Assembly (NCBI RefSeq): GCF_036365525.1
Contig: NC_090404.1
Coordinates: 18,111,134 to 18,175,133 of the forward strand
Source: Heterodontus francisci
Taxonomy: Eukaryota
Length of the DNA stretch: 64,000 nucleotides
Reading direction: 5' to 3'
Shown: positions 4,228-64,000 of the stretch, one piece after another
Layout of the letters: the number at the start of each line of letters is the position of its first letter
How positions within the stretch are numbered: the first letter of the stretch is position 1
Position numbers and translations under genes: made by a program
Notes under the pieces: generated by a model
Databases searched by the model: none
Told to the model about the DNA's origin: nothing
Seen by the model: the letters and a program-made list of their open reading frames with translations, nothing else

Positions 4228-7200
4228 GGTGAGAACAGAAATTTCAAGAACAGAATAATATGGGGACATTTAAGATGAAATAATTAATCATGTATTACTA
4301 ACAAACTAACTTCGGAGCTGCACAGACAGCTTATCAGTAATGACTTCATAGCTTTAGAGCTTCAGCAGACAGCTTATCAGAAATTAATAGTAGCCTATTC
4401 AGTGCTGTAGGGACAGCTTATCAGTACAAATAGACTAACCAGCAAAAACCTAGCAGGACAGCTGCAGCTGTTGAAGACTAACCCTTTGTATGACAATCAG
4501 CCCAACGTTCCCAGGAGATTCTTTTGGGCCTCCTTATCTCGAGAGACAATGGATACGCGCCTGGAGGTGGTCAGTGGTTTGTGAAGCAGCGCCTGGAGTG
4601 GCTATAAAGGCCAATTCTGGAGTGACAGGCTCTTCCACAGGTGCTGCAGAGAAATTTGTTTGTTGGGGCTGTTGCACAGTTGGCTCTCCCCTTGCGCCTC
4701 TGTCTTTTTTCCTGCCAACTACTAAGTCTCTTCGACTCGCCACAATTTAGCCCTGTCTTTATGGCTGCCCGCCAGCTCTGGCGAATGCTGGCAACTGACT
4801 CCCACGACTTGTGATCAATGTCACACGATTTCATGTCACGTTTGCAGACGTCTTTATAACGGAGACATGGACGGCCGGTGGGTCTGATACCAGTGGCGAG
4901 CTCGCTGTACAATGTGTCTTTGGGGATCCTGCCATCTTCCATGCGGCTCACATGGCCAAGCCATCTCAAGCGCCGCTGACTCAGTAGTGTGTATAAGCTG
5001 GGGGTGTTGGCCGCTTCAAGGACTTCTGTGTTGGAGATATAGTCCTGCCACCTGATGCCAAGTATTCTCCGAAGGCAGCGAAGATGGAATGAATTGAGAC
5101 GTCGCTCTTGGCTGGCATACGTTGTCCAGGCCTCGCTGCCGTAGAGCAAGGTACTGAGGACACAGGCCTGATACACTCGGACTTTTGTGTTCCGTGTCAG
5201 TGCCCCATTTTCCCACACTCTCTTGGCCAGTCTGGACATAGCAGTGGAAGCCTTACCCATGCGCTTGTTGATTTCTGCATCTAGAGACAGGTTACTGGTG
5301 ATAGTTGAGCCTAGGTAGGTGAACTCTTGAACCACTTCCAGAGCGTGGTCGCCAATATTGATGGATGGAGCATTTCTGACATCCTGCCCCATGATGTTCG
5401 TTTTCTTGAGGCTGATGGTTAGGCCAAATTCATTGCAGGCAGACGCAAACCTGTCGATGAGACTCTGCAGGCATTCTTCAGTGTGAGATGTTAAAGCAGC
5501 ATCGTCAGCAAAGAGGAGTTCTCTGATGAGGACTTTCCGTACTTTGGACTTCGCTCTTAGACGGGCAAGGTTGAACAACCTGCCCCCTGATCTTGTGTGG
5601 AGGAAAATTCCTTCTTCAGAGGATTTGAACGCATGTGAAAGCAGCAGGGAGAAGAAAATCCCAAAAAGTGTGGGTGCGAGAACACAGCCCTGTTTCACAC
5701 CACTCAGGATAGGAAAGGGCTCTGATGAGGAGCCACCATGTTGAATTGTGCCTTTCATATTGTCATGGAATGAGGTGATGATACTTAGTAGCTATGGTGG
5801 ACATCCGATCTTTTCTAGTAGTCTGAAGAGACCACGTCTGCTGACGAGGTCAAAGGCTTTGGTGAGATCAATGAAAGCAATGTAGAGGGGCATCTGTTGT
5901 TCACGGCATTTCTCCTGTATCTGACGAAGGGAGAACAGCATGTCAATAGTCGATCTCTCTGCACGAAAGCCACACTGTGCCTCAGGGTAGACGCGCTCGG
6001 CCAGCTTCTGGAGCCTGTTCAGAGCGACTCGAGCAAAGACTTTCCCCACTATGCTGAGCAGGGAGATTCCACGGTAGTTGTTGCAGTCACCGCGGTCACC
6101 TTTGTTTTTATAGAGGGTGATGATGTTGGCATCGCGCATGTCCTGGGGTACTGCTCCCTCGTCCCAGCACAGGCATAGCAGTTCATGTAGTGCTGAGAGT
6201 ATAGCAGGCTTGGCACTCTTGATTATTTCAGGGGTAATGCTGTCCTTCCCAGGGGCTTTTCCGCTGGCTAGGGAATCAATGGCATCACTGAGTTCCGATT
6301 TGGTTGGCTGTATGTCCAGCTCATCCATGACTGGTAGAGGCTGGGCTGCATTGAGGGCAGTCTCAGTGACAGCATTCTCCCTGGAGTACAGTTCTAGGTA
6401 GTGCTCAACCCAGCGGTCCATCTGTTTGCGTTGGTCAGTGATTATGTCCCCCGATTTAGATTTGAGGGGGGTGATCTTCTTGATGGTTGGCCCAAGAGCT
6501 CTCTTCATGCCATCATACATTCCTCTGATGTTTCCGGTGTCTGAGGCCAGCTGAATATGACTGCATAGGTGTTGCCAGTAGTCGTTTGCGCAACGCCTAG
6601 CTGTTCTTTGTGCAGTACTTCTGGCTGCTTTAAGTGCTGCGGATGTTAAATCGCTGGGGGCTTTCTTGTAGTTCAAAAGTGCAATGCGCTTAGCGGCTAT
6701 GACAGGTTCCAGCTCTTCATTATGAGATTCAAACCAGTCTGCATTTCTCTTCGCACTTTTGCCGTAGGTGGTCAAAGCTGACTCATAGATGGCGTCTCTG
6801 ATGTGGGCCCACTTGGTCTCAGCATCCCCTGTGGGAGTGTTTTGAAGGGCTGTTACAAGTGAATTTAGAAATTTTTGTAACAGCTGTGGGTGAGAAATTC
6901 TGCTCGTGTTGATGCGCGGGTGGCCCTTCTGCTTGGAATGATGCAACTTCTTTGGTCTGAGTCTAACCTTGCTGCACACCAGGGAGTGGTCGGTGTCGCA
7001 GTCCGCACTGTGGAAGCTGCGTGTGATTTGAACACTGTTTAAGGCGGCTCGCCTTGTGACAATGAGGTCTAGCTGGTGCCAACGACGTGATCTTGGGTGC
7101 CTCCATGAAACCTGGTGACAGGGTTTAGTGTGAAAGAACGAGTTGGTGATGCAGAGGATATGATAGGTACACAACTCAAGCAGTCTCTGCCCGTTCTCAT

Positions 7201-7947
7201 TCATCCTTCCAACGCCATAGCGCCCAAGGCAGGAGGGCCATGAGTCATGGTCAGCCCCAACCCTGGCATTAAAGTCCCCCAGCAGGAATAGGTGTTCGGT
7301 GTTGGGGATGCTGCTAATGATATGGAGTTGTTCATAGAACTGGTCTTTAGCTTCAGGTGCGGAGCAGAGTGTTGGAGCATAGATGCTGAGTAGGTGTACT
7401 GGACCAGAGGTGGTGAGCAGTCGGATGGACAGTATGCGTTCCGAGCCATTTGAGGGAGGCTCTATCATGCTGAGCAAGGAGTTTCTGATGGCGAAGCCCA
7501 CTCCATGCTGTCTTGGTTCTTCAGGATCCCTGCCCTGCCAGAAGAAGGTGTAGTCTTGCTCTGCTAGAGAGCCACTCGCGGGGAGGCGAGTCTCCTGAAG
7601 TGCTGCAATGTCCACAATGTCCCAGGAGATAGGGGAATAAGAAACTGCTTGAGGAGAGGGCGACAAGGCAGTGCCCCAATCAGGCCCTGACACCAAGAAA
7701 CTGCAAAGTTTGTGAACCAATTGGGAACATAAAGGGGGTGTCACTAATTTGTGAGAAGAACTATAAGAAAGGCTTGAATTCCCTCCTCCAGCACGGAGGA
7801 AGAGGGAGGAGAGCCCAGGTGTTGTTGTTGTTCGCTTTGCTGATGATGTAACCACTAAGTACTACAATAAAGTTTCTTAAAGCTCCAGTCGGACTTCGTC
7901 TCTTTTTGGTGTAACCAATGAGAACATAAAAAAACTGAGATCCAACA
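4228..7947 (+). mobile_element. ERV solo LTR (~610 bp) split by an RTE insertion
   Basis: CAGAC 5-bp TSD (4223-4227 / 7948-7952), ends CCAACA, TATAAG and AATAAA (7866). Same LTR as the provirus at 62408. Confidence 0.9.
4520..7619 (-). mobile_element. Young near-full-length RTE-clade LINE (APE endonuclease + RT; one in-frame TAG at 5792-5794)
   Basis: ALQETR, LGDFNARVG, TDH (EN); NYRGISLL, FIDLTKAFD, FADD (RT). 11-bp TSD TCCCAGGAGAT (4509-4519 / 7620-7630). ORFs 5792-7855 and 4571-5758 are in the same frame. Confidence 0.95.
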
Positions 7948-20459: not shown

Positions 20460-21069
20460 CGTGAGAACAGAATTTTCAAGAACAGAATAATATGGGGACA
20501 TTTAAGATGAAATAATTAATCATGTATTACTAACAAACTAACTTCGGAGCTGCACAGACAGCTTATCAGTAATGACTTCATAGCTTTAGAGCTTCAGCAG
20601 ACAGCTTATCAGAAATTAATAGTAGCCTATTCAGTGCTGTCGGGACAGCTTATCAGTACAAATAGACTAACCAGCTAAAACCTAGCAGGACAGCTGCAGC
20701 TGTTGAAGACTAACCCTTTGTATGACAATCAGCCCAACGTTCCCAGGAGATAGGGGAATAAGAAACTGCTTGAGGAGAGGGCGACAAGGCAGTGCCCCAA
20801 TCAGGCCCTGACACCAAGAAACTGCAAAGTTTGTGAACCAATTGGGAACATAAAGGGGGTGTCACTAATTTGTAAGAAGAACTATAAGAAAGGCTTGAAT
20901 TCCCTCCTCCAGCACGGAGGAAGAGGGAGGAGAGCCCAGGTGTTGTTGTTGTTCGCTTTGCTGATGATGTAACCACTAAGTACCACAATAAAGTTTCTTA
21001 TAGCTACAGTCGGACTTCGTCTCTTTTTGGTGTAACCAATGAGAACATAAAAAAAACTGAGATCCAACA
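20460..21069 (+). mobile_element. ERV solo LTR, unit 2
   Basis: CAGAC TSD on both sides; AATAAA at 20987. Confidence 0.92.
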
Positions 21070-24996: not shown

Positions 24997-27912
24997 TCAT
25001 TCTCCTTTATCCATATACCTATCTAAAAGCCGTTTGAAAGTCCCTAAAGTTTCTGACTCAACAACTTCCCCAGGCAAGGCATTCCATGCCCCGACCACTC
25101 TCTGGGTAAAGAACCTTCCCCTGACATCCCCCTTATATCTCCCACCCTTCACCTTAAATTTATGACCCCTTGTAACGCTTTGCTCCACCCGGGGAAAAAG
25201 TTTCTGACTGTCTACCCTATCTATTCCCCTGATCATCTTATAAACCTCTATCATGTCACCCCTCATCCTTCTCCGTTCTAATGAGAAGAGGCCTAGAATG
25301 TTCAGCCTTTCCTCGTAAGACTTATTCTCCATTCCAGGCAACATCCTGGTAAATCTCCTCTGCACCCTCTCCAAGGCTTCCACATCCTTCCTAAAATGAG
25401 GCGACCAGAACTGCACACAGTACTCCAAATGAGGCCTTACCAAGGTCCTGTACAGCTGCATCATCACCTCACGGCTCTTAAATTCAATCCCTCTGCTAAT
25501 GAACGCTAACACCCCATATGCCTTCTTCACAGCCCTATCCACTTGAGTTGCAACTTTCAACGATCTATGCACATAGACCCCAAGGTCTCTCTGCTCCTCC
25601 ACATGCCCAAGAACCCTACCGTTAACCCAGTATTTTGCATTCGTGTTTGTCCTTCCAAAATGGACGACCTCACACTTTTCAGGGTTAAACTCCATCTGCC
25701 ACTTTTCAGCCCAGCACTGCAACCTATCCAAGTCCCTTTGCAGACGACAATAGCCCTCCTCGGTATCCACAACTCCACCAACCTTTGTATCATCTGCAAA
25801 TTTACTGACCCACCCTTCGACTTCCTCAAACAAGTCGTTAATAAAAATCACAAACAGGAGAGGACCCAGAACTGATCCCTGTGGCACGCCACTGGTAACT
25901 GGGCTCCAGGCTGAGTATTTACCATCTAAGACCACTCTCTGCCTTCTATCAGTTAGCCAATTCTTAATCCAACTGGCCACATTCCCCACTATCCCATGCC
26001 TCCTGACTTTCTCCATAAGTCTACCATGGGGGACCTTATCAAATGCCTTACTAAAATCCATGTACACCACATCCACTGGTTTACCCTCATCCACTTGCTT
26101 GGTCACCTGCTCAAAGAATTCAATCAGGCTTGTGAGGCAAGACCTACCCCTCACAAAACCGTGTTGACTGTCCCGAATCAAGCAGTGTCTTTCCAGATGC
26201 TCAGAAATCCTATCCCTCAGCACCTTTTCCATCAACTTGCCTACCACCGAAGTAAGACTAACTGGCCTGTAATTCCCAGGGTTGTTCCTATTCCCTTTCT
26301 TGAACAGGGGCACAACATTTGCCACCCTCCAATCACCTGGTACCACCCCCGTCAACAGAGAAGATGAAAAGATCATTGCCAGCGGCTCTGCAATTTCATC
26401 CCTTGCTTCCCATAACATCCTTGGATATACCCCGTCAGGCCCGGGAGACTTGTCTATCTTCAAGTTATTCAAAAACCCCAACACATCTTCCCTCCTAACG
26501 AGCACTTCCTCGAGCTTACCAGTCTGTTTCACACCGTCCTCTTCAGTAATACACCCCTTCTCATTCGTAAATACCGAAGAGAAGTACTCATTCAAAACCT
26601 CACTTATCTCTTCCGGCTCAACACACAGTCTCCCGCTATTGTCCTTGACCGGACCTACGGTCCCCCTAGTCATCCTCATATTTCTGACATACGCGTAAAA
26701 GGCCTTGGGGTTTTCTTTTATCCTACCCGCCAAGCATTTTTCATGCCCTCTCTCAGCTCTCCTAATCCCTTTCTTCAGATCCTTCCTGGCCATCTTGTAT
26801 CCCTCCAGAGCTATGCCTGTGCCCTTTTTCCTCAACCTTATATACGCATCCTTCTTCTTCCTAACAAGACTCTCAACCTCTCTTGTCAACCACGGTTCCC
26901 TCACATGACCATCCCTTCCCTGTCTGACAGGGACATGCTTATCAATGGCCCCTACTATCTGCTCCTTGAAAAAGTTCCACATTTCGACCGTGCCCTTCCC
27001 TGCCAGCATATGCTCCCAACTTATGCTCCTCAGTTCCTGCCTGACAGCATCATATCTACCCTTCCCCCAATTGTAAACCTTGCCCTGTTGCACATACCTA
27101 TCCCTCTCCATTACCACAGTGAATGCTACAGAATTGTGATCACTATCTCCAAAGTGCTCGCCCACCAACAGCTCTATCACTTGCCCTGGTTCATTACCTA
27201 GTACCAAATCCAATATTGCCTCCCCTCTGGTCGGGCAGTCTACATACTGAGTCAGAAAAGCTTCCTGGACATACTGCACAAACACTACCCCATCCAAACT
27301 ATTCGATCTAAAGAGTTGCCAATCAATATTTGGGAAGTTGAAATCCCCCATAATTACTACCCTGTGACTTCTGCTCCTTTCCAAAATCTGTTTCCCAATC
27401 TGCTCTTCCACCTCCCTGCTGCTATTGGGGGGCCGATAGAAAACTCCCATCAAGGTGACTGCTCCTTTCCTGTTCCTGACCTCAACCCACAGTGCCTCAG
27501 TCGGCAGATCCTCCTCGAAAATTCTTTCAGCAGTTGTTACACTATTTCTAACTAACAATGCCACCCCCCCACCTCTTTTACCACCATTCCTAATCTTATG
27601 AAAACATCTATAACCAGGTACCTCCAAGAACCATTCCTCCCCCTCACCTATCCACGTTTCAGTGATGGCCACAACATCGTAGTCCCAAGTGCCCATCCAC
27701 GCCTTCAATTCACTCACCTTATTCCTGATGCTTCTTGCGTTGAAGTATACGCACTTTAACCCTTCTCCGTGCCCATCTGTCCTCTGCGACAGTGCTACCT
27801 TCCCCAATACCTCACTACACTCTTTGTCTTTCTGAGTGGACCCACTGGTCCCTGGACTACAAGTCCGGTTCCCATCCCCCTCCCAAACTAGTTTAAACCC
27901 TCCCGAACAGTA
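24997..27912 (-). CDS. CR1 ORF2: APE endonuclease + reverse transcriptase
   Basis: YFNARS, ITETW, MGDFNFP, SDHN; [37 protein letters not shown]. Frame is open from 27912; the first ATG is at 27696. Confidence 0.95.
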   Translation of the reverse strand, partial: YCSGGFKLVWEGDGNRTCSPGTSGSTQKDKECSEVLGKVALSQRTDGHGEGLKCVYFNARSIRNKVSELKAWMGTWDYDVVAITETWIGEGEEWFLEVPGYRCFHKIRNGGKRGGGVALLVRNSVTTAERIFEEDLPTEALWVEVRNRKGAVTLMGVFYRPPNSSREVEEQIGKQILERSRSHRVVIMGDFNFPNIDWQLFRSNSLDGVVFVQYVQEAFLTQYVDCPTRGEAILDLVLGNEPGQVIELLVGEHFGDSDHNSVAFTVVMERDRYVQQGKVYNWGKGRYDAVRQELRSISWEHMLAGKGTVEMWNFFKEQIVGAIDKHVPVRQGRDGHVREPWLTREVESLVRKKKDAYIRLRKKGTGIALEGYKMARKDLKKGIRRAERGHEKCLAGRIKENPKAFYAYVRNMRMTRGTVGPVKDNSGRLCVEPEEISEVLNEYFSSVFTNEKGCITEEDGVKQTGKLEEVLVRREDVLGFLNNLKIDKSPGPDGVYPRMLWEARDEIAEPLAMIFSSSLLTGVVPGDWRVANVVPLFKKGNRNNPGNYRPVSLTSVVGKLMEKVLRDRISEHLERHCLIRDSQHGFVRGRSCLTSLIEFFEQVTKQVDEGKPVDVVYMDFSKAFDKVPHGRLMEKVRRHGIVGNVASWIKNWLTDRRQRVVLDGKYSAWSPVTSGVPQGSVLGPLLFVIFINDLFEEVEGWVSKFADDTKVGGVVDTEEGYCRLQRDLDRLQCWAEKWQMEFNPEKCEVVHFGRTNTNAKYWVNGRVLGHVEEQRDLGVYVHRSLKVATQVDRAVKKAYGVLAFISRGIEFKSREVMMQLYRTLVRPHLEYCVQFWSPHFRKDVEALERVQRRFTRMLPGMENKSYEERLNILGLFSLERRRMRGDMIEVYKMIRGIDRVDSQKLFPRVEQSVTRGHKFKVKGGRYKGDVRGRFFTQRVVGAWNALPGEVVESETLGTFKRLLDRYMDKGE

Positions 27913-28808
27913 CTAGCAAACCTCCCTCCCAGGATATTGGTGCCCCTCTGGTTCAGATGCAGCCCGTCCTGTTTGAACAGGTCCCATCTTCCCCAGAATG
28001 CAGTCCAATTATCCAAGAACTGGAAGCCCTCCCTCCTACACCATTCCTGCAGCCACGTGTTCAGCTGTGCTCTCTCCCTATTCCTAGCCTCACTATCACG
28101 TGGCGCCGGCAACAAACCAGAGATAACAACTCTGTCCGTCCGAGCTTTCAGCTTCCAGCCTAACTCCCTAAACTCACTTCTAACATCTGTGCCACCCTTC
28201 CTTCCTACGTCGTTGGTGCCAATGTGCACCACGACCTCTGGCTGCTCCCCCTCCCCTTTAAGGATCCTGAAGACGCGATCACAAACATCACGGACCCTGG
28301 CACCAGGGAGGCAACAAACCATCCGTGCGTCTCGCTTGCTCCCACAGAACCGCCTGTCGGTACTCCTCACCATCGAGTCCCCGATGACTAGTGCTCTCCC
28401 GTTCTCCCTCCTTCCCTTCTGAGCCACAGTGCAGGACCCCGTGCCAGAGGCCCGTTCACTGCAGCCTGCCCCCGATAGGCCGCCCCCCCCAACAGTATCT
28501 AAAACTGTATACTTGTTGTTGAGGGGAACGACCACAGGAGATCCCTGCACTGACCTCTTCCCACCTCTAACTGTTACCCAGCTGCCTTTGTTTTGTGGAG
28601 TAACGACATCCCTGTAGCTTCTATCTATCACCCCCTCAGCTTCCCGAATGATCCTCAGTTCATCCAGCTCCAGCTCCAGTTCCCTAACACGGTCTGATAG
28701 GAGCTGGAGACGGATGCACTTCCAGCAGGTAAAGTCGGCAGGGTCCCCGGAGGTTCCCCTCACCTCGAACATACTGCAGGAGGAGCACTGCACTCCCCTG
28801 GCTGCCAT
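27888..28808 (-). CDS. CR1 ORF1: zinc finger/leucine zipper + SGNH (GDSL) esterase, 306 aa
   Basis: CxxC..CxxC, heptad LLSDRVRELELEL, IGDS, HIGTND, DGLHL. Confidence 0.95.
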   Translation of the reverse strand: MAARGVQCSSCSMFEVRGTSGDPADFTCWKCIRLQLLSDRVRELELELDELRIIREAEGVIDRSYRDVVTPQNKGSWVTVRGGKRSVQGSPVVVPLNNKYTVLDTVGGGGLSGAGCSERASGTGSCTVAQKGRRENGRALVIGDSMVRSTDRRFCGSKRDARMVCCLPGARVRDVCDRVFRILKGEGEQPEVVVHIGTNDVGRKGGTDVRSEFRELGWKLKARTDRVVISGLLPAPRDSEARNRERAQLNTWLQEWCRREGFQFLDNWTAFWGRWDLFKQDGLHLNQRGTNILGGRFASTVREGLN

Positions 28809-28987
28809 TTCTTTTACTCAATTACCCCTTAATTAAGTACAAATATAGATATTAACAAAAACAGTGAAATAGCTTACCTGTTCAGTCCTTTTTGGTTAGA
28901 GGAGGAGGGTAAAAAGGGTCTTATTATTAGGTTAGAGGAGGAGGATGGGTGGGAGACACTACATGTGTAGTGTCTCGGGTTAACTCT

Positions 28988-39380: not shown

Positions 39381-39989
39381 TGTGATAACAGAATTTTCAA
39401 GAACAGAATAATATGGGGACATTTAAGATGAAATAATCAATCATGTATTACTAACAAACTAACTTCGGAGCTGCACAGACAGCTTATCAGTAATGACTTC
39501 ATAGCTTTAGAGCTTCAGCAGACAGCTTATCAGAATTTAATAGTAGCCTATTCAGTGCTGTAGGGACAGCTTATCAGTACAAATAGACTAACCAGCTAAA
39601 ACCTAGCAGGACAGCTGCAGCTGTTGAAGACTAACCCTTTGTATGACAATCAGCCCAACGTTCCCAGGAGATAAGGGAATAAGAAACTGCTTGAGGAGAG
39701 GGCGACAAGGCCGTGCCCCAATCAGGCCCTGACACCAAGAAACTGCAAAGTTTGTGAACCAATTGGGAACATAAAGGGGGTGTCACTAATTTGTAAGAAG
39801 AACTATAAGAAAGGCTTGAATTCCCTCCTCCAGCACGGAGGAAGAGGGAGGAGAGCCCAGGTGTTGTTGTTGTTCGCTTTGCTGATGATGTAACCACTAA
39901 GTACTACAATAAAGTTTCTTAAAGCTCCAGTCGGACTTCGTCTCTTTTTGGTGTAACCAATGAGAACATAACAAAACTGAGATCCAACA
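39381..39989 (+). mobile_element. ERV solo LTR, unit 3
   Basis: TGT...ACA termini, CAGAC TSD (39376-39380 / 39990-39994), AATAAA at 39908. Confidence 0.94.
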
Positions 39990-60675: not shown

Positions 60676-62407
60676 CAGTCGTGGGGAAGGTGTTAGAATC
60701 GATCATTAAGGAGGCTCCGACTGGGCACTTATAAAAACTCAATGTAATCGGGAATAGTCAGCACAGTTTTGTGAAAGGGAGATCACTTCAACATGGCGGT
60801 ACCTCATCAGACCCCTTTCCTATCCTGAGTGGCGTGAAACAGGGCTATGTTATCGCACCCACATTTTTGGGGATTTTCATCTCCCTGCTGCTCTCACATG
60901 CGTTTAAGTCGTCTGAAGAAGGAATTTTCCTCCACACAAGATCAGGGGGCAGGTTGTTCAACCTTGCCCGTCTAAGAGCGAAGTTCAAAGTACGGAAAGT
61001 CCTCATCAGGGAACTCCTCTTTGCTGACGATGCTGCTTTAACATCTCACACTGAAGAGTGCCTGCAGAGTCTCATCGACAGGTTTGCGGCTGCCTGCAAT
61101 GAATTTGGCCTAACCATCAGCCTCAAGAAAAGGAACATCATGGGACAGGACGTCAGAAATGCTCCATCCATCAATATTGGCGACCACGCTCTGGAAGTGG
61201 TTCAAGAGTTCACCGACCTAGGCTCAACTATCACCAGTAACCTGTCTCTCAATGCAGAAATCAACAAGCGCATGGGAAAGGCTTCCACTGCTGTGTCCAG
61301 ACTGGCCAAGAGAGTGTGGGAAAATGGCGCACTGACACGGAACACAAAAGTCCGAGTGTATCAACCCTGTGTCCTCAGTACCTTGCTCTATGGCAGCGAG
61401 GCCTGGACAACGTATGTCAGCCAAGAGCGACGTCTCATTTCATTTCATCTTCGCTGCCTCCGGAGAATACTTGTCATCAGGTGGCAGGACCGTATCTCCA
61501 ACACAGAAGTCCTCGAGGCGGCCAACATCTCCAGCATGTACACCCTACTGAGTCAGCAGCGCTTGAGATGTCTTGGCCATGTGAGCCGCATGGAAGATGG
61601 CAGGATCCCCAAAGACACATTGTACAGCGAGCTCGCCACTGGTATCAGACCCACCGGCCGTCCATGTCTCCGCTTTAAAGACGTCTGCAAATGTGACGTG
61701 AAGTCCTGTAACATTGATCACAAGTCGTAGGTGTCTGTTGCCAGCGTTCACCAGAGCTGGTGGGCAGCCATAAAGGTGGGGCTAAAGTATGGCGAGTCGA
61801 AGAGACAGCAGTTGGCAGGAAAAAAGACAAAAGCGCAAGGAGAGAGCCAACTGTGTAACAGCCCCGACAAACAAATTTTTCTGCAGCACCTGTGGAAGAG
61901 CCTGTCACTCTAGAATTGGCCTTTATAGCCACTCCAGGCGCTGCTCCACACACCACTGACCACCTCCAGGCGCTTACCCATTGTCTCTCGAGATAAGGAG
62001 GCCAAAGAAAGAAAGAAATCATGTTTAACCAATTTACTGGAGTTCTTTGAAGGAGTAACATGTGCTGTGGATAAAGGGGAGCCCGTTAACGACTGTACTT
62101 GGATTTCCAGAAGGCATTTGACAAGGTGCCACATAAAAGGTTATTGCACAAAGTAGAAACTCATGGTGTAGTGGGGTAACATATTAGCATGAATAGAAGA
62201 TTGGCTGGCAGAAAACAGAGTATACATAAATGGGTCCTTTTCTGATTGGCAGGATTTGTCGAGTGGAGTCCTGCAGGGGCCTCAACTTTTTCCAATTTAT
62301 ATCAATGACTTAGATGAGGGGAGTGTAGGCATGGTAGCTAAATTGGCAGATGACACAAAGATAGGTAGGAAAATATGTTGTGAAGAGGACATAAGGAGGT
62401 TGCAGAC
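60676..62407 (+). mobile_element. CR1 host A, unit 5 (5' part)
   Basis: Paralogous to host A up to the ERV integration site. Confidence 0.83.
60786..62014 (+). mobile_element. 5'-truncated RTE LINE, unit 5
   Basis: Same junctions as the other units; ORF 60771-61730. Confidence 0.93.
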
Positions 62408-63020
62408 TGTGATAACAGAATTTTCAAGAGCAGAATAATATGTGGACATTTAAGATGAAATAATTAATCATGTATTACTAACAAACTAACTTCGGAGCTG
62501 CACAGACAGCTTATCAGTAATGACTTCATAGCTTTAGAGCTTCAGCAGACAGCTTATCCGAAATTAATAGTAGCCTATTCAGTGCTGTAGGGACAGCTTA
62601 TCAGTACAAATAGACTAACCAGCTAAAACCTAGCAGGACAGCTGCAGCTGTTGAAGACTAACCCTTTGTATGACAATCAGCCCAACGTTCCCAGGAGATA
62701 GGGGAATAAGAAACTGCTTGAGGAGAGGGCGACAAGGCAGTGCCCCAATCAGGCCCTGACACCAAGAAACTGCAAAGTTTGTGAACCAATTGGGAACATA
62801 AAGGGGGTGTCACTAATTTGTAAGAAGAACTATAAGAAAGGCTTGAATTCCCTCCTCCAGCACGGAGGAAGAGGGAGGAGAGCCCAGGTGTTGTTGTTGT
62901 TCGCTTTGCTGATGATGTAACCACTAAGTACTACAATAAAGTTTCTTAAAGCTACAGTCGGACTTCGTCTCTTTTTGGTGTAACCAATCAGAACATAAAA
63001 AAAACTGAGATCCAACAACT

Positions 63021-63038
63021 TGGTGTAGTCGGCAGGAT
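63021..63038 (+). promoter_or_regulatory. Primer binding site complementary to tRNA-Ser 3' end
   Basis: TGGTGTAGTCGGCAGGAT versus the vertebrate tRNA-Ser(AGA/TGA) end ATCCTGCCGACTACG-CCA: 17/18, the mismatch giving a G:U pair. Lies 3 nt after the LTR's CA. Confidence 0.88.
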
Positions 63039-63344
63039 CGCTGGAGGATCGAGACCAAAGCACTGGACATCGGTCCTTTATGGGGCCCCAGAGGTAAGGA
63101 TTCCTCTTTGTTTGAAAAGTCATTGGCCGTTGTCTAGGCTCGGTACTCCACCACGCGATCCCGAACCTCTTTGTTCAGTAACTCAAGTCCATTCGGGGGG
63201 AATACGGAAGACGAAAACCCCATATTTAGGCGCCTGATTTGGCGTTATTCGGCGTAATACCGACCCACGGGCTTCGACGGAAGCTCCATCGGCTTGAGTT
63301 TCTGTAGAAATACCCGGTTATACCGACCCTACGGCATTGATAAA

Positions 63345-64000
63345 ATGACCAACGAAGACAACCGACAGTTACCAACTACCGTCAAAGGTGGGCGGGCCCT
63401 GCCTGATGTTCCCGAAGATGAAATACTTGGTCAGTTAATAGAATGTATGGAGCAATGGTTTAATTTGGCTAAAACATACACAGACATTGGGCAAAAATAT
63501 GGCACCGCCACGGGACAGTGGTCCCTGGAAGAGATAAAGAGAGTCTGGGGGAAAAACAACCTGTTTAAAGGATAGAGAACGGACCCAATGGTCCCTAGCC
63601 GTCATGGGCCAGATCAGCGTAATGAAATTATCCAACAAGCTCAACGTGACCTAACTAATGTGAAGGACCAATTGAAGGCGGTCTGCGAACAATTGAAAGA
63701 GGAAAAGCTTAAAGTGGAACAGTTAGAAGCTGCCCATAAAAAGCTAGAAATTGGAAATAGAGAACTTAAAAGACAACTACAGGATGAACGAGCGATCCAA
63801 TTGAAGGGACCGCTTTACGGACCCCCCCCCCAACCACCACCACCGACTAACATATATCCGAGTTTGAAGATGTTACAAAAAGAACAACACCTACTGCAAC
63901 TGCATGATGCAGGTCTAGCGGAGGACGAGTCCTCCAGTGAAGAAAGTGACACTGATGATGATGGTTTGCCTTTCCCGCGACTAGCTCCCCTCAAACAGAA
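63345..64000 (+). pseudogene. Retroviral gag-like N-terminal region (one in-frame TAG at 63573)
   Basis: ATG at 63345. After the stop the frame stays open to the window end: coiled coil, PPPQPPPP, YPSL (63855-63866), acidic stretch. Confidence 0.65.

Follow-up and report, generated by a model that had tools for sequence, protein, structure and literature searches.

A decayed shark provirus from a fish retroviral lineage probably sister to gamma- and epsilonretroviruses, with a likely -1 frameshift between gag and pol

The provirus, its duplicates and its leader

The window, by which we mean the whole 64,000-nucleotide stretch analyzed here (G000:C34:18111134-18175133, in a 6.0-Gb genome), is set in a tandem array of zinc-finger gene units and holds the 5' end of a provirus that extends 12.6 kb beyond the window edge (Table 1). 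Named proteins matched at 90% and 79% identity carry the annotation Heterodontus francisci, and the host is most likely a horn shark or a closely related species. The provirus runs in the order LTR, tRNA-Ser primer-binding site (PBS), gag, pol, gamma-type env, polypurine tract (PPT) and LTR, of which the remainder of gag with its one CCHC zinc knuckle after the capsid region, pol, env, the purine tract and the 3' LTR lie past the window. Its pol comprises protease, RT (YVDD), tether, RNase H and an integrase with an MLV-type tail (MLVIN_C, 1e-13), and its env is of gamma type (TLV_coat 3e-8 and syncytin-2 5e-13, in an open stretch of another copy); a domain search of the provirus returned no dUTPase family match and a weak Retrotrans_gag match below the cut-off. 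This order, together with a target duplication, is that of the Retroviridae, as are the tether with RNase H and an RT apart from Ty3/gypsy. It bears out an earlier note on this window, which had inferred a retrovirus rather than a gypsy element and had advised a search for env downstream; the 610-bp LTR, Ser PBS, 5-bp target duplication and splice donor of that note also stand. Stops or shifts of frame disrupt all three of gag, pol and env, and the RT additionally contains a nested LTR element of 4.7 kb (L001 4141-8813). The provirus is a real retroviral insertion, decayed and part of a multi-copy family, and the locus shows no signs of function.

Table 1. Features of the provirus 5' end and of its duplicate LTRs, by position in the window
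Feature	Position	Strand	Remarks
Left target duplication, CAGAC	62403..62407	+	In CR1-like LINE remnant; right copy after 3' LTR, L002 5158-5162
5' LTR, 610 bp, TGT...ACA	62408..63017	+	TATA-like 62831, AATAAA 62935; 3' LTR at L002 4561-5157
PBS, tRNA-Ser(AGA)	63021..63038	+	17/18 match; most other copies carry the matching base
Palindromic hexamer GGGCCC (sister subfamily GGCGCC)	63083..63088	+	Candidate dimer-initiation site
Splice donor AG/GTAAG, GT at 63094	63090..63107	+	Within predicted 5-bp hairpin
gag, 5' part	63345..64000	+	ATG at 63345, no Gly2; in-frame stop 63573-63575; A_AAA_AAC_UAG end at L001 3044-3053
Coiled-coil-like heptad region of Gag	63630..63790	+	Heptad score against shuffles; right end read from sequence
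Proline run and YPSL (YPxL-type late-domain candidate)	63822..63866	+	YPSL at 63855
Duplicate solo LTR	20460..21069	+	Flanked by CAGAC at either end, with an additional base at left
Duplicate solo LTR	39381..39989	+	Segmental duplicate of provirus insertion, CAGAC duplication
Third duplicate solo LTR	4229..7947	+	Pieces 4229-4519 and 7620-7947, split by minus-strand LINE

CAGAC flanks the whole provirus at both ends, interrupting a CR1-like LINE remnant. The solo LTRs of the window have the same flanks as the provirus insertion and diverge from it by 1.4-1.7%, and are therefore read as later duplicates that lack the interior; separate insertions were ruled out, flanks and duplication being the same. 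We propose that insertion into the LINE remnant of a zinc-finger gene unit was followed by tandem duplication of that unit, that most duplicates of the insertion then collapsed to solo LTRs, and that a non-autonomous chimeric element inserted into the RT of the provirus copy. The solo LTR is kept in three array units, with additional duplicates found at L003 and in L012-L013. Array units in window positions 1-62400 measure about 12-19 kb, and each has one long exon of C2H2 zinc fingers together with fragments of LINEs and the remains of a gypsy element; a CR1-like LINE on the minus strand (24997-28817) has two long open frames of 971 and 309 aa. A database model, P0138, named 'zinc finger protein 850-like', combines zinc fingers with parts of the LTR, gag and pol of the provirus family, and probably reflects an error of gene prediction in an array of the same sort.

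The two LTRs of the provirus differ by a K2P distance of 0.0136, and its age is only loosely set, since this distance corresponds to about 31 million years if the shark rate assumed in the available part of PMC4422223 is applied, and to about 3 million years with the mammalian rate quoted there; twelve other proviral pairs of the family have LTR distances of 0.006-0.029. A search of the genome with the LTR gave 1286 first-look candidates, of which 40 were scored, and a search with the protease gave 428, of which the 150 scored fall into two identity bands (about 86-92% and 73-81%). Exact 5-bp duplications were found at 16 of 32 loci, one of them a duplicate of the provirus insertion, and five more had one mismatch; a 4-bp reading came from a single locus. 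The remaining loci were either unmatched or placed wrongly by the script, and two of them have exact 5-bp duplications by eye.

Compared with the host's tRNA, as the earlier note had advised, the PBS is complementary to the 3' 18 bases of tRNA-Ser(AGA) at 17 positions (of six pattern matches, the three examined for identity were all tRNA-Ser(AGA)), and tRNA-Ser would accordingly be the primer of reverse transcription in this family. That note had also singled out a 10-bp palindrome just before the donor. The palindrome TGGGGCCCCA is present, but some 10-bp palindrome occurs in 570 of 2000 shuffles of the 328-nt leader and TGGGGCCCCA itself in only 1 of 31 family leaders (those located among 39 loci), and as a chance-level, copy-specific match it was rejected as a signal. 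A shorter palindrome no more than 16 nt before the donor is GGGCCC in 12 of 14 near-subfamily leaders and GGCGCC in 11 of 17 leaders of the sister subfamily, a change that preserves self-complementarity and is compatible with a role in dimer initiation; the hexamer is a possible dimer-initiation site. Leader folds place it in no predicted loop, and a dimer-initiation hairpin was set aside because the predicted folds do not expose the hexamer in one.

The splice donor is conserved in 26 of 31 leaders, within its predicted hairpin, and a pyrimidine-rich AG in the integrase, about 230 nt upstream of the env start, is a candidate acceptor; we propose that env RNA would be spliced from one to the other. 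One contig of run X1 (of four runs examined, their RNA nature guessed) joins the leader to exactly that integrase AG; on the reference used, its leader side breaks off before reaching the donor. The env splicing predicted in the earlier note thus has its donor and its acceptor in place, and this single contig is suggestive only of their use. In nine sister-subfamily copies (L047, L048, L050-L052, L056, L057, L061, L062) pol deletions starting from two distinct 5' points end exactly at the candidate acceptor, a pattern that may reflect template switching, or splicing that preceded reverse transcription.

The gag-like frame described earlier also holds in most respects: the provirus lacks Gly2, the best five heptads beat 500 of 500 shuffles, and the proline run and YPSL are there, although the in-frame stop had been left out. 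Across the family none of the 16 Gag starts located in 36 copies carries Gly2, and YPxL is present in 27 of the 36. Such a non-myristoylated, coiled-coil Gag would bud through YPxL. Some copies have an open Gag frame over about 40 codons 5' of the ATG (L005 and L006 leaders; about 63230-63345 in the window), and in these two leaders a glyco-Gag-like upstream start is possible.

Position in the retroviral tree

A piece of the RT scores 93 bits with MLV, 83 and 69 with foamy viruses, and 41 with Ty3. Two quick trees were made, of RT (105 rows, after removal of 28 near-duplicates from 133) and of RT with tether (55 rows), and a careful RT-tether tree from 35 of the latter, with long, partial and redundant rows dropped. 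In the careful tree the shark copies form one clade with rows from gar, Coilia and Astyanax and unlabelled rows (100/98), and this clade is sister (100/99) to a crown that holds WEHV1 and REV and is itself supported at 100/99; both quick trees give the same topology. WEHV1 and REV are the only named viruses among the matches listed (including the best 120 of 172 and the best 120 of 179), and SnRV, ERV-L, foamy, loki and class II viruses are absent by name from the rows, a cluster look-up having named none of them either. SnRV is represented by proxy, through six rows whose RT motifs match, by eye, those of SnRV and CmiERV lineage I in supplements. Constraining the clade together with these six rows, which were picked after the tree was seen, was rejected (AU p=0.0014), and identity in RNase H is 46-58% with class I rows versus 26-28% with four of the proxy rows. 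The shark family is therefore placed outside the gamma/epsilon crown and, on the features tested, outside class III and the SnRV group, and the pol and env of the provirus resemble those of a simple class I retrovirus.

Directly observed are the anatomy, the target duplication of 5 bp, the PBS for tRNA-Ser, the -1 phase of pol in most copies and, among the sequences available, the tree position. We consider it probable that the window holds the 5' end of a provirus whose RT belongs to a fish lineage sister to gamma- and epsilonretroviruses and whose Gag-Pol was likely made by a -1 frameshift at A_AAA_AAC. The family could otherwise be an ordinary epsilon-like class I ERV of clade Mu, with a sister position produced by sampling and with such fish elements already kept under ERV1. 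It shares with epsilon- and gammaretroviruses (WEHV1, REV, MLV and class I ERVs), besides the sister RT, an RNase H and GPY/F-type integrase tail of class I kind, the single knuckle, YPxL, the gamma-type env and the lack of a dUTPase match; moreover, in the accessible portions of the sources clade Mu is broad and fish-rooted (PMC6001957) and target duplication length is reported to vary within classes (PMC4299795). We nevertheless think this improbable. The crown with WEHV1 and REV separates at 100/99 without the fish clade, the duplication is 5 bp where class I has 4 bp, Gag has a coiled-coil front and lacks the myristoylation glycine of class I in all 16 located starts, and pol is in the -1 phase, unlike class I, whose pol lies in frame behind a stop in the available text of PMC1224870 and PMC5009743. 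This placement outside the crown gives the family no home among the named genera, which fits one of the options in the earlier note, 'another basal lineage'.

SnRV takes an Arg primer, has accessory genes and starts env upstream of gag; no additional long frame was noticed in the provirus. The first options of the earlier note, class III or SnRV-like, would now have to mean a class III or SnRV-like ERV carrying a class I env, in the manner of XtERV-S or CmiERV lineage I, and this we regard as distinctly unlikely. In its favour, the tRNA-Ser PBS, 5-bp duplication and TGT...ACA ends are those of XtERV-S/ERV-S, which also lack myristoylation and have a class I-like env TM, unlike the provirus in their ERV-L-type gag/pol, absence of a knuckle, dUTPase and in-frame stop (PMC8278194 and bioRxiv 2024.03.17.585361, as far as the available text of each goes). 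SnRV and Ovex1 have a non-myristoylated coiled-coil Gag like that of the provirus, in SnRV likewise with one knuckle, and differ in their accessory genes and in read-through of an in-frame stop (available part of PMC2717909). CmiERV lineage I of the elephant shark, in the available part of PMC4422223, has an identical Ser PBS, a coiled-coil Gag with one knuckle and, by eye, a closely similar env transmembrane region, whereas its RT, tether and RNase H are SnRV-like and its gag and pol look in frame by eye; given the closeness of env and PBS, those parts may have been exchanged.

Against a class III or SnRV-like origin stand, in addition to the rejected constraint, the CCHC knuckle and MLV-type integrase tail, neither of which ERV3/ERV4 have in Table 1 of PMC4299795 (the part of that source available), the RT sister to class I among the rows compared, and the -1 pol phase, gag and pol of SnRV and XtERV-S being in one frame in the accessible sources. 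The RT signature of SnRV, its motifs seen in supplements, matches CmiERV lineage I and a second shark family, F (below), and not the provirus. A 5-bp duplication, Ser priming and a coiled-coil Gag are thus insufficient alone for assignment to class III. Lokiretroviruses have a dual RNase H, as the provirus does (PMC7947760), and their Bik relatives a coiled-coil Gag (PMC12067270), but in the available text of PMC7947760 they carry an F-type env and a distinct RT, and the provirus has neither, its env being gamma-type.

Members of the fish clade seem to have been sampled in print without a lineage name. Oste.ERVi.1 and Eluc.ERVi.2, unclassified ray-finned fish ERVs of about 8.4 kb, a size similar to the provirus family, have RT motifs that match the clade by eye, and Oste.ERVi.1 reads nearly as P0091, a row within it; in the available portion of PMC10435555 they lack a lineage name, and many elements there cannot be placed in a genus. 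Its 14 supplement files give no match for Chondrichthyes, that is, no cartilaginous-fish member, and the available portion does not treat the gag-pol junction of its ERVi. The suggestion of an undescribed fish ERV in the earlier note therefore needs narrowing: it holds for the shark family, no description of which, or of its frameshift signal, was found in the open-access literature, and does not extend to the teleost members that this supplement already appears to contain. Viral-contig scans gave no matches, and a scan of metagenomes found a single locus.

The gag-pol junction

In the shark family A_AAA_AAC_UAG closes gag, and protease lies in the -1 frame relative to it: a heptamer of the form X_XXY_YYZ stands in the gag frame with pol in -1, an arrangement newly noted here. 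Junctions were compared in 36 copies, 16 of the near and 20 of the sister subfamily by list order. The phase from knuckle to protease, read in the 28 copies with a recognisable knuckle, is -1 in 20, +1 in 4 and 0 in 4, and -1 occurs in both subfamilies; among the off-phase copies, several have a C or A run that is longer or shorter. The heptamer is present in 34 of the 36, and the junction is nearly invariant in an alignment of 30 of them, from which six with local indels were excluded. Gamma- and epsilonretroviruses and SnRV use one frame with stop suppression, according to the available text of PMC1224870, PMC2717909 and PMC5009743; an in-frame gag stop with read-through is not the arrangement of the shark family and is found in one teleost relative.

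That relative, a contig and the only one with DNA, has gag and pol in frame across UGA-CUAG in a read-through context. Its Gag is 34% identical over 230 residues, its pol falls within the fish clade, and the CUAG after the junction is common to it and the shark family. A search with Gag found 132 relatives, and those that carry names belong to catsharks, minnow, carp, pike and polar cod. Among relatives with a knuckle 25-80 residues from the end, to which the count was limited, 7 of 14 close ones have a Gly-Asn or Lys-Asn C-terminus (0.6% expected for each row), versus 1 of 26 distant ones, as G_GGA_AAC or A_AAA_AAC before a stop would encode; these rows are related and come without DNA, so that the sign is indirect and the rows are not independent.

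A hairpin or pseudoknot that stimulates frameshifting normally lies 5-9 nt downstream of such a site. Pseudoknot-free folds of the 60 nt after the junction give z of -0.8 to -1.4 and revealed no stimulator, and the only candidate hairpin lacks compensatory changes. Gag-Pol of the shark family was likely made by -1 ribosomal frameshifting at A_AAA_AAC, which would replace read-through. We treat the frameshifting as inferred because the signs in relatives are indirect, the teleost contig is in frame and no stimulator was found.

The offset might also be no decoding signal at all, if a read-through ancestor had given rise to a defective, frame-shifted master that spread with help in trans. The in-frame teleost relative with the same CUAG, the position of the site within an indel-prone A run and the failure to find a stimulator would all suit such a history, which we judge very unlikely, since two subfamilies that differ by about 22% in protease have retained the junction and Gag relatives in minnow, pike and others end in Gly/Lys-Asn. 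Least credible of all, and of negligible probability, is a Ty3/gypsy or BEL retrotransposon, for which the weak Retrotrans_gag match could speak and against which stand the tether with RNase H, the gamma-type env and an RT far from all gypsy rows.

Recombination with a second family

A second large LTR family, F (L033-L036, L040; for example G000:C22:68118000-68127999), has a tRNA-Lys PBS, a coiled-coil Gag and 4-bp duplications in all three copies read. Its RT is about 40% identical to that of the provirus, groups with coelacanth and frog rows, and matches SnRV and CmiERV lineage I in its motifs by eye; a lokiretrovirus identity was dropped because these motifs look SnRV-type. Its env resembles the F proteins of gypsy, baculovirus and paramyxovirus (atlas score 0.96, with low recognition; Pfam Baculo_F 4e-4, below the cut-off).

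At three loci (L011, L037 and L038) LTR and leader of the provirus family surround a family F interior with its F-like env. Their 5' side consists of the provirus-family LTR, PBS, leader and gag start followed by family F internal sequence, their 3' side of the last 209 nt, PPT and LTR of the provirus family, and the breakpoints agree across copies. The element nested in the RT of the provirus (copies L074-L085) is a three-way chimera, in which a third LTR (478 bp) and a Ser PBS enclose a family F core and about 80 nt of provirus-family U3; the F core lies behind the third LTR in 12 of 12 copies and the provirus-family 3' tail is present in 11 of 12. No autonomous parent of the nested element was seen among these 12 sampled copies. 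All 11 copies with both ends have a 5-bp duplication (nine by script, two by eye), versus the 4 bp of family F, which suggests that the chimeras were integrated by the provirus family's type of integrase. The provirus family has thus recombined with a family carrying an F-like env, and the chimeras record recombination between deeply separated retroviral families, with different types of fusion protein, in one germ line.

We put forward a wider proposal, whose chances we hold to be about even: that a fish-wide lineage of sharks, gar and teleosts, sister to all gamma- and epsilonretroviruses, is mostly frameshifting with at least one read-through member, and that, in this shark, an F-like env of an SnRV-type family came under the LTRs and leader of that lineage and gave rise to a large family of non-autonomous chimeras. 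Translational strategy is treated as a global marker in the available part of PMC1224870, separating a gamma branch (one frame, read-through) from a beta branch (frameshift). If the proposal is true, the lineage records a switch between these two Gag-Pol strategies at the base of class I, and a frameshifting sister of class I with a read-through member that shares CUAG would make the origin of class I read-through testable by short reporter inserts.

A genome search with the family F env gave 6489 first-look candidates, of which 150 were scored, and in this genome the F-like env was seen only in family F and its derivatives and is not the env of the provirus; a single-sequence fold of it reached pLDDT 36. 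The pairing of an F-like env with an SnRV-type pol, in a shark, may not have been described before.
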